Positions 28,861 through 29,340 of a stretch of 64,000 nt of DNA are shown one piece after another. Position 1 is the first letter of the stretch. Every line of letters starts with the position of its first letter. Source of the DNA: Bdellovibrionota bacterium. GTDB taxonomy: Bacteria; Bdellovibrionota_C; UBA2361; JBGSMV01. The stretch covers positions 32,001 to 96,000 of the forward strand of contig JBGSMV010000026.1 of NCBI GenBank assembly GCA_041739995.1. The letters run 5' to 3'. A program made the position numbers and the translations under genes. Under the pieces are notes generated by a model that was not told the DNA's origin, ran no database searches, and saw only the letters and a list, made by a program, of their open reading frames with translations.

Positions 28861-28933
28861 CACGCCCGGAGGGAATCGAACCCCCAACCTACGGATTTGG
28901 AATCCGTCGCTCTACCAATTGAGCTACGAGCGT
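28861..28933 (-). tRNA. tRNA-Trp (CCA)
   Basis: ACGCTCG TA GCTC AATTGGTA GAGC G ACGGA TT CCA AA TCCGT AGGTT GGGGG TTCGATT CCCTC CGGGCGT G; 3' CCA not encoded. Confidence 0.97.
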
Positions 28934-28966
28934 ACCTGCTACGAACTTAACACAAATCTCCAGCGC

Positions 28967-29090
28967 TCCGTAGGTTGGGCTCCCTTCGGAGAAACACAAG
29001 GCTCGCTAACTCGCCTCACGTCCTACGGATTTGGAATCCGTCGCGTTCTACCACCGTAGCTCAAGTAGTTGAGCTACGAGCGTATCTGCT
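28967..29090 (-). other. tRNA-Trp-derived element (sense partial copy + GA hairpin + antisense fragment)
   Basis: 29022-29090 copies the tRNA-Trp leader through position 46, with a hairpin inserted in the D-loop; 28967-28979 is an inverted copy of positions 39-51. Confidence 0.85.
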
Positions 29091-29112
29091 TGCCAAAACC
29101 TATCACAAAGTA

Positions 29113-29185
29113 AGCTGGCAACCGGAGTTGAACCGGTAACCTGCTGATTACAAATCAGCTGCTCTGCCAATTGAGCTATGCCAGC
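29113..29185 (-). tRNA. tRNA-Thr (TGT)
   Basis: GCTGGCA TA GCTC AATTGGCA GAGC A GCTGA TT TGT AA TCAGC AGGTT ACCGG TTCAACT CCGGT TGCCAGC T. Confidence 0.97.
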
Positions 29186-29189
29186 GGCT

Positions 29190-29340
29190 AAATCACCACA
29201 GGTGATTTGTAACAAGCAGGTTACCTACTGCCAGGATGCTCGAAGTCTCGCATCCTGACTGATGTTAGGGCTCGAACTTCTCGAGGCTGTCGCCTCGAGG
29301 TACTCGCCCTCCTGCTGATTACGAATCAGCTGCCGAGCTC
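29190..29340 (-). other. tRNA-Thr-derived element (sense anticodon-arm copy + GA hairpins + antisense fragment)
   Basis: 29311-29333 copies the anticodon arm (anticodon CGT) through position 46; 29203-29225 is an imperfect inverted copy of positions 29-51. Confidence 0.8.

Follow-up and report, generated by a model that had tools for sequence, protein, structure and literature searches.

Why should two different tRNA genes each be preceded by pieces of themselves, one piece in the forward and one in the inverted sense, with hairpins in between? The question is raised by a stretch of 64,000 nucleotides (nt) from a Bdellovibrionota bacterium (assembly GCA_041739995.1, contig JBGSMV010000026.1, positions 32,001 to 96,000 of the forward strand; hereafter the window), in which tRNA-Thr(UGU) and tRNA-Trp on the minus strand both follow a module that consists of a sense partial copy of the gene (the decoy), hairpins tipped by tandem G.A mismatches, and an antisense copy. 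The two modules belong to a family of structured repeats that recurs at many tRNAs and in many genomes of the order, and whose downstream form shares its anatomy with the tRNA-linked repeats (TLRs) of Escherichia coli, the Thr and Trp modules being a 5' mirror-image form. The reading that we tentatively favour, while giving it a somewhat less than even chance, is that these are members of a lineage-wide family of non-autonomous DNA modules that recombine with tRNA genes at loop positions and rebuild the gene as they do so.

Two tRNA genes preceded by partial copies of themselves

Matching of each tRNA against its own flank recovered on the minus strand the parts that the initial annotation had read at this locus, namely a sense copy that runs to G46, G.A-tipped hairpins, and an antisense copy whose edge lies at position 51 (Table 1). 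The Trp sense copy is present as two pieces, positions 1-15 at 29069-29083 and positions 24-46 at 29022-29044 (23/23), and contains an additional 15-nt hairpin in its D region. The mismatch in the Thr sense copy turns the anticodon into CGT, the adjacent gene having TGT; 15 bases of this decoy (29311-29333) are identical to positions 28-42 of tRNA-Thr(CGU) on contig C77. Positions 29-51 of tRNA-Thr are matched at 91% by the antisense copy at 29203-29225, which lies 17 nt from the gene. Both modules are gene-free and measure 100-190 nt between their direct repeats. The Thr leader folds at -70.7 kcal/mol (z -6.1; 0 of 200 shuffles as good), and the decayed Trp leader folds weakly better than shuffles (z -2.0).

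Table 1. Features of the tRNA-Trp and tRNA-Thr(UGU) locus (positions in the window)
Feature	Position	Strand	Remarks
Intact tRNA-Trp(CCA)	28860-28933	-	ARAGORN; Rfam tRNA, 72 bits
Trp spacer, 33 nt	28934-28966	-	Last 7 nt (leader) duplicated before the sense partial copy
Trp antisense copy, positions 39-51, 13/13	28967-28979	-	13/13 kept in the same-genus genome G001
Trp hpB hairpin (core GCGAG-YTRG-CGAGC)	28993-29022	-	Model R1, 30.6 bits (G000:C67:60993-61022); hairpin of the initial annotation, 28999-29016
Trp sense copy, decayed: leader and tRNA-Trp 1-46, ending at G46	29022-29090	-	
Intact tRNA-Thr(UGU)	29113-29185	-	ARAGORN; Rfam tRNA
Thr antisense copy, positions about 25-51, best over 41-51	29199-29225	-	
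Thr hpB-type hairpin	29230-29259	-	Model R1, 29.9 bits; hairpin of the initial annotation, 29232-29257
Thr long hairpin with G.A internal loops, directly after the sense copy	29267-29310	-	
Thr sense copy, positions 24-46, 22/23, ending at G46	29311-29333	-	
Sigma-70-like promoter match	29418-29447	-	10/12 hexamer matches; consensus match only; upstream of the whole Thr module

As judged from its match to the consensus, the promoter-like site upstream of the Thr module would direct transcription across both modules and both tRNAs; no such site was found between module and tRNA. A search of 27500-31500 with Rfam at E <= 1 returned tRNAs only, plus spurious plastid untranslated-region models overlaying the tRNAs. 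As for a possible assembly artefact, unitigs from two public runs (X1 and X2) match 28946-29098 and 28820-29075 exactly, which lends the Trp region weak independent support, since these runs may be the source sample; the Thr module (29197-29442) is covered by no contig of runs X1-X3, at a depth of ~3 that is uninformative either way. Six RNA runs share 0.05-0.06 of words, and the reads of run X12 are ascribed to other organisms because they cover the tRNA bodies only and with many differences; the RNA runs searched yielded no data for this organism.

The modules form a family within the genome

The genome (G000; 3.81 Mb in 81 contigs) holds 42 tRNAs, each of which was compared with its own flanks of 400 nt on either side at a score of at least 12, with pairings of a tRNA and the flank of another tRNA as control. 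Matches to the own flank were obtained for 8 of the 42 tRNAs (Thr-UGU, Trp, Asp, Asn, Cys, two Met and Leu-UAA), as against 4 of 1344 category tests in the control pairings, and two of these four control matches trace to a partial copy of Pro-GGG beside tRNA-Ala at a contig end. The matches are more than chance would give; random decay had already been judged an insufficient explanation of the shared geometry when the two modules were first noticed. A ninth module, that of Pro-GGG, spans a contig break.

Two types of module are observed. The upstream type, located at Thr, Trp, Asp and Pro, has the order leader and tRNA 5' part, hairpins, antisense copy, spacer, gene. The downstream type, located at Asn, Asp, Cys and Met, has the order gene, trailer, antisense T arm and acceptor, hairpins, and a sense copy of the last 16-19 nt to CCA (Asn 19, Asp 19, Met 17 and Cys 16 nt). 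Every module is made of a displaced partial copy of one tRNA end together with a few leader or trailer bases, one to three hairpins whose tandem-G.A tips are conserved and whose stems covary freely and, on the gene side, an inverted copy that spans the breakpoint. The units are 55-210 nt long and gene-free. At Asn, two 210-nt units stand in tandem, of which the outer is the more decayed. Small fold-back palindromes are found immediately before the antisense arm at Asp in this genome and at Trp in the same-genus genome G001.

A conserved hairpin accompanies the copies

The hairpin that recurs in these modules, hpB, has the tip GCGAG-YTRG-CGAGC, which forms two tandem G.A pairs, one G-C pair and a tetraloop. 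The G.A motif proposed in the initial annotation holds for this specific, conserved hairpin, which is enriched, but not for the generic class: tandem-G.A hairpins with an outer stem of at least 6 number 38 in the genome, as against 23-41 for five other mismatch dinucleotides. As the generic class is not enriched, the argument rests on the specific hairpin only.

The bare hpB motif occurs in 46 of the 91 genomes of the order. Among 34 motif matches in 30 loci, the stem is extended by at least four pairs in 20 and by one pair or none in 14, a bimodal distribution; four of these 14 form a hairpin if one mismatch beside the core is allowed, and the rest lie in coding DNA without a stem. Nineteen of the 34 matches are situated at most 330 nt from a tRNA, and all 19 are on the tRNA strand. 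In an alignment of 20 hairpins, two stem pairs that were not forced by the selection are formed in 20/20 and 18/20 sequences and show 8 and 7 double-sided changes, and sliding the partners breaks the pairing (82% paired as against 29-39%). The covariance model for which the initial annotation had called could thus be built, and the stem does covary.

This model (R1) was searched in 124 genomes sampled from the phylum and matches 72 of them, 67 of 91 inside the order and 5 of 33 beyond it; a single genome has as many as 18 copies. Matches at E < 0.001 in the genome under study are confined to the Trp, Thr and Asp modules (3/3 at tRNAs). The 43 matches in 30 further loci include 31 that lie at most 500 nt from an intact tRNA on the same strand and two on the opposite strand, both from a Pro module that is cut off at a contig end; the remaining 10 have no intact tRNA within 500 nt, several of them being at contig ends. 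In many modules hpB is accompanied by a second hairpin type, which has a tandem-G.A tip and a triloop.

The core also occurs apart from tRNAs. A two-hairpin core at L038:1424-1585 (G014:C12) stands in the gap between two protein genes, antisense to both and without a tRNA within 1.5 kb, so the core is bound strictly neither to tRNAs nor to the direction of transcription. An R1-matching hairpin is likewise contained in a dispersed non-coding repeat of ~530 nt in genomes G029 and G065 (L152:2675-3215; L153:3089-3613 and 6441-6965; L151:334-816), of which there are at least six copies per genome, 77-87% identical, between protein genes and with no tRNA nearby; the repeat has no Rfam match, and its consensus fold shows few compensatory changes. 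Some copies of it carry a 27-nt mini-hairpin that others do not (L141 and L142 vs L140 and L143; alignment A3, columns 360-395), and this mini-hairpin looks to be separately mobile. Its 21-nt core is found, in opposite orientation, inside the T stem of pseudo-copies of tRNA-Leu(UAA) (G000:C27:1989-2009). Finally, tRNA-Ala(GGC) at G000:C44:13650-13715 is followed by two tandem copies of a ~33-nt repeat of the G.A-hairpin type, with similar units on contigs C16 and C73; the G.A strand of these units is antisense to the tRNA, opposite to the main family.

Relatives, geometry and turnover

The expectation that modules would be present at other tRNA loci and in relatives is borne out at many tRNAs and in many genomes of the order. 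In G001, both the Thr and the Trp module are in the same places. Alignment of the two congeners shows that the antisense blocks are identical (17/17 for Thr and 13/13 for Trp) and that the hairpin tip is kept, the remaining leader being close to random. The Thr decoy is lost in G001; the Trp decoy is perfect there (46/46) and decayed in G000. Other families of the order carry modules at Trp, Thr, Gly, Pro, Asp, Asn, Arg, Met and Val, upstream or downstream and often in tandem, and across tRNAs with the same cores the arms match the local tRNA every time. Genome G047, of another family, has the same outer hpB stem sequence before its own tRNA-Thr(UGU), with the arms adapted to each tRNA.

Occupancy is patchy. 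An upstream Thr(UGU) module is found only in G000, G001, G027, G031 and G047 among the genomes scanned at that locus, and relatives differ in whether a given tRNA has a module at all. Besides Asn in G000, arrays with stronger decay in the distal unit occur at Trp in G023 and G003 and at Met and Arg in family f8, and hairpins of the family are found at contig ends.

The geometry was compared over 195 tRNAs, of which 71 tRNA sides have a partial copy and 29 have both kinds; this sample is not random, its loci having been chosen for their similarity to a tRNA or a hairpin. Of the two copies, it is the antisense one that lies closer to the gene in 29/29 sides with both (the antisense-proximal rule). 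Breakpoints of the sense copies cluster at positions 12-15 and 20-21 (D loop), 31-38 (anticodon arm), 46-50 (variable loop) and 56-61 (T loop). The breakpoints at 46 and 51, proposed as identical between the modules, are indeed shared by Thr and Trp and nearly so by Asp (47), but they are not universal, other modules breaking in the D, anticodon and T loops; modules of Pro-GGG break at position 38 in G000, G008 and G020. The antisense arms match their own tRNA also over positions 47-51, beyond any decoy template, and the duplicated segment reaches 4-14 nt into the local leader or trailer. The direct repeats are of variable length, 24-60 nt.

The tRNA-linked repeats of E. coli share the anatomy

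TLRs (RtT/RttR, Rfam RF00391) were first described in 1978 and are reported, in the account given in PMC8144298, at ten loci of strain K-12 with 22 copies and no known function. As defined there, a TLR terminates at its 3' side in a copy, 18-19 bp long, of the 3' end of the gene that directly precedes it. The same account relates that three TLRs linked to 5S genes are transcribed, processed, and bind Hfq and CsrA in vitro.

The scan used above was applied to the tyrT-tyrV region of K-12 (NC_000913.3, 1286000-1288300). After each tRNA-Tyr, and in each repeat unit, a trailer of ~56 nt is followed by an inverted copy of positions 56-77, that is of the T arm and the acceptor 3' strand, with 13/22 matches in the best ungapped segment and a diverged T-loop part. 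The units continue with a 9-nt sense piece that ends in the T loop, a 78-nt insert with G.A-type hairpins, and the last 19 nt to CCA. They stand in tandem, and at 4/4 inverted-copy positions scanned the inverted copy is proximal, followed by the hairpin insert and the distal sense copy. In the annotation, the small RNA RttR starts 8 nt past tyrV and extends to the final base of the CCA copy. The 5S-linked TLR rrB has a sense copy only.

TLRs and the Bdellovibrionota modules are alike in lying within tRNA operons and containing the end of the adjacent gene, the Thr and Trp modules abutting their tRNAs at 17 and 33 nt. The downstream modules of the same genome (Asn, Asp, Met and Cys) agree with the published definition, and the tyrT/tyrV units share their whole anatomy, a criterion of the present analysis that stands outside that definition. 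The Thr and Trp modules, in contrast, lie upstream and copy the 5' part of the gene to position 46, and therefore fall outside the definition as published. No sequence homology with TLRs was detected: the RtT model (RF00391) gives no match at E <= 1 in 27500-31500 of the window, its best match in the whole genome lies elsewhere at 15.8 bits (E 4; gathering score 45), and R1 has no match at the E. coli locus. On anatomical grounds we nevertheless conclude that the modules are of the same kind as the TLRs despite failing the published definition, a resemblance that the initial annotation had not pointed out. A search of the literature, mostly of titles and abstracts, yielded no description of such modules outside E. 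coli.

What the comparison adds is the 5' mirror form, the conserved hairpin family with its distribution, and the antisense-proximal rule, together with the inverted copy and split sense copy that the same scan reveals in the tyrT/tyrV repeats. TLRs have been unexplained since 1978, and their three-part anatomy now recurs in an unrelated phylum, which turns a curiosity of E. coli into a general feature of tRNA genes that is open to experiment, for instance with the hairpin as bait, through the antisense arm, or by following gain and loss across the 91 genomes.

A proposed recombination model for the modules

The order of parts on both sides of the gene is what would be produced if a non-autonomous DNA module recombined with the tRNA gene at a loop position (here the variable loop, 46/47) in one crossover next to the hairpins. 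The element would be composed of the hairpins and a copy of one tRNA part, closed by the antisense arm, with the crossover at the junction of hairpin and tRNA part; as the module brings its own copy of that part, the gene would be rebuilt and its old end pushed outward. Recognition or recombination may take place in a strand-specific manner, at a folded site made up of the sense:antisense stem and the G.A hairpins. In this site the antisense arm would pair with the sense arm of the element, so as to form a duplex that copies the target, and would serve as a 'bottom strand' reaching across the crossover by ~5 nt. Arrays would grow next to the gene while the outer units decay, and a module once inserted would be co-transcribed with the tRNA as leader or trailer. 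We infer from this arrangement recombination, a single-strand form and the existence of an enzyme.

The suggestion that the locus is the footprint of a tRNA-targeting element thus gains from the family, the arrays, the patchiness, the strand polarity and the loop breakpoints, but a linked enzyme gene is lacking. The searches of this genome for HUH enzymes, REP-associated tyrosine transposases (RAYT), reverse transcriptases and integrases linked no such gene to any module, and the link to GIY-YIG nucleases is weak. The Y1-type family PF01797 has one match of 29.9 bits and one of 21 bits, both unlinked to modules; four tyrosine recombinase/integrase genes (PF00589) lie on contigs C74, C20, C54 and C24, none of them adjacent to a module and the nearest ~8 kb from tRNA-Asp; the one reverse transcriptase gene is also unlinked.

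Further points weigh against recombination by such an element. Viral contigs gave 0 matches to two two-hairpin patterns. The direct repeats include local leader or trailer bases, which indicates local templating rather than a ready-made element. Over 41 modules, the antisense copy differs from the tRNA less often in the T loop (36/287) than in the T stem (94/410), which gives no overall support to an unpaired bubble at the crossover like that of CTX attP. The conservation of antisense blocks and hairpin tip between congeners fits an RNA function as well, and the E. coli analogue is annotated as a small RNA whose 3' end is the CCA copy. A preprint on the mobilome (10.1101/2024.07.17.603846) notes raised coverage at tyrT-rttR, which, in the passage concerned, its authors ascribe to RNA/DNA hybrids and not to circles.

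Several known systems offer partial parallels to the recombination that we favour. Integrative elements that target tRNA genes duplicate a tRNA segment as attL and attR, with the crossover in the anticodon or T loop. The modules resemble them in the direct repeat of a tRNA segment, the restored gene, the loop breakpoints and the serial accretion beside the gene, but differ in having no integrase or cargo, in their size, in the inverted copy, and in a form that duplicates the 5' part. The attP(+) site of CTX phage, used by XerCD, and the attC sites of integrons are folded single-strand recombination sites. As is proposed for the modules, inverted arms there fold into a duplex that mimics the target and the site is strand-specific; with one crossover, the expected order is target hybrid, body, antisense arm, loop and sense hybrid. 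The modules differ in that the target is a tRNA gene, the arms differ per tRNA, the elements are tiny and a central unpaired region is not general, a T-loop bubble being seen in E. coli tyrT/V and in some Arg modules.

Repetitive extragenic palindromes (REP) and bacterial interspersed mosaic elements (BIME) with their RAYT, and the palindrome-associated transposable elements (PATEs) of IS200/IS605, are small, strand-specific, repeated non-coding hairpins with covarying stems. In this genome, however, the hairpin is found at tRNAs only, the arms are copies of the target, and the weak Y1-type match lies elsewhere. Miniature inverted-repeat transposable elements differ from the modules, whose arms are tRNA-specific rather than common terminal repeats and whose direct repeats vary in length instead of being a short target-site duplication of constant size. 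The mitochondrial retroplasmids of Neurospora acquire copies of tRNAs and insert at the tRNA gene through homologous recombination. They are alike in that an element carrying a tRNA copy leaves a direct tRNA repeat at that gene, and different in being eukaryotic, organellar, kb-sized and driven by reverse transcriptase, of which the present genome has a single unlinked gene.

Alternative explanations

The modules might instead be functional RNAs, either a cis switch or an aid to folding or processing, in which the antisense copy pairs with the decoy or with tRNA positions 39-51, or stable RNAs of the RtT/RttR kind, with DNA rearrangements accounting for their origin only. The strand rule speaks for this, as the G.A hairpins are on the tRNA-sense strand in 19/19 motif matches and in 31 as against 2 model matches near tRNAs, as does the position of the promoter-like site, upstream of the Thr module and not between module and tRNA. 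The blocks kept between G000 and G001 amid near-random surroundings, and the fit of the antisense arms to their own tRNA over 47-51 without a decoy template, likewise fit an RNA function, and in E. coli there is the rttR annotation together with the processing and the Hfq/CsrA binding of TLR transcripts reported in the account cited (PMC8144298). Against this, the decoy is dispensable, being lost before Thr in G001 and decayed before Trp in G000; the 5'-3' order of the hairpins differs between upstream and downstream modules, which is odd for one fold; and arrays, patchiness and varied breakpoints require a DNA process anyway. Nor do the TLRs have a known function according to that account (PMC8144298). 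We rate an RNA function as a serious rival, though on the unlikely side.

Passive local rearrangement, by slippage, template switching or unequal crossing-over, would dispense with a dedicated element altogether, the hairpins being ordinary terminator or processing stems. It accommodates the local leader and trailer bases in the duplicated segment, the fold-back palindromes before the antisense arm (Asp in G000, Trp in G001) and the tandem arrays, which are typical of unequal crossing-over. It does not predict that the same covarying hairpin core should accompany different tRNAs in 72 of 124 genomes, and random slippage predicts neither the 29/29 antisense-proximal rule nor the recurrence of the architecture in E. 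coli. Such an origin is improbable.

The modules could also be scars of integrase-borne islands or prophages, that is attL/attR duplications whose interior has been deleted. Att sites of the T-loop type (one of the sublocation classes) would give tRNA copies that start in the T loop, as do the direct 16-19-nt 3'-end copies that terminate the downstream modules, and the genome does hold an 11-kb stretch flanked by pieces of tRNA-Leu(UAA). Yet the units are gene-free and of 55-210 nt, the four integrase genes are located in other places, duplication at Thr and Trp concerns the 5' part, and the inverted copy and conserved hairpins go unexplained, so that this origin seems very unlikely.

A GIY-YIG nuclease gene of 79 aa lies at L060:1501-1737 (G000:C48:18372-18608), 167 nt after tRNA-His and behind G.A-type hairpins. 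Its homologues are 83-91% identical in three other families of the order, the best match in the same genus being 43%, which suggests transfer, and among the 30 best homologue loci in the order 13 adjoin tRNA-His and 2 adjoin tRNA-Ala(GGC). That the modules are gene-less remnants of small nuclease cassettes of this kind homing into tRNA genes, as this association with tRNAs and G.A-type hairpins might suggest, is nonetheless the least credible of the explanations and has little chance of being correct, since partial tRNA copies (score at least 10) occur in only 2 of these 30 loci and the Thr, Trp, Asp, Asn, Cys and Met modules neither hold nor adjoin such a gene.

Recombination of a non-autonomous module thus remains the reading that we favour. 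If mobile, the modules would represent a new way to target essential genes while the host survives; if they act as RNAs, they would be a widespread unrecognised part of tRNA precursor biology. A wider proposal, which we consider doubtful, is that the TLRs and the Bdellovibrionota modules, in very distant lineages, are one undescribed class of gene-less mobile DNA, which would enter tRNA loops as folded single-stranded DNA at a site made of forward and backward copies of the target, each insertion rebuilding the gene. In that event the tRNA genes of very distant lineages would share a specific parasite, or a symbiont RNA, overlooked since 1978.

Other tRNA-derived sequences in the genome

The 11-kb stretch mentioned above lies on contig C16, where it is flanked by direct 120-nt arms whose ends fall in the anticodon loop of tRNA-Leu(UAA) (G000:C16:2934-2978 and 14215-14266). 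Next to one of the arms lies a complete tRNA-Leu copy, interrupted by an insert of 52 nt after position 51. A search for PF00589 integrases gave no match on this contig; the stretch is probably an integrative island.

On contig C15, a 67-nt sequence (G000:C15:3690-3756) is 92.5% identical to positions 6-72 of tRNA-Gly(UCC). As it lacks the 5' acceptor strand and is not called by ARAGORN, it is classed as a tRNA pseudogene or fragment.

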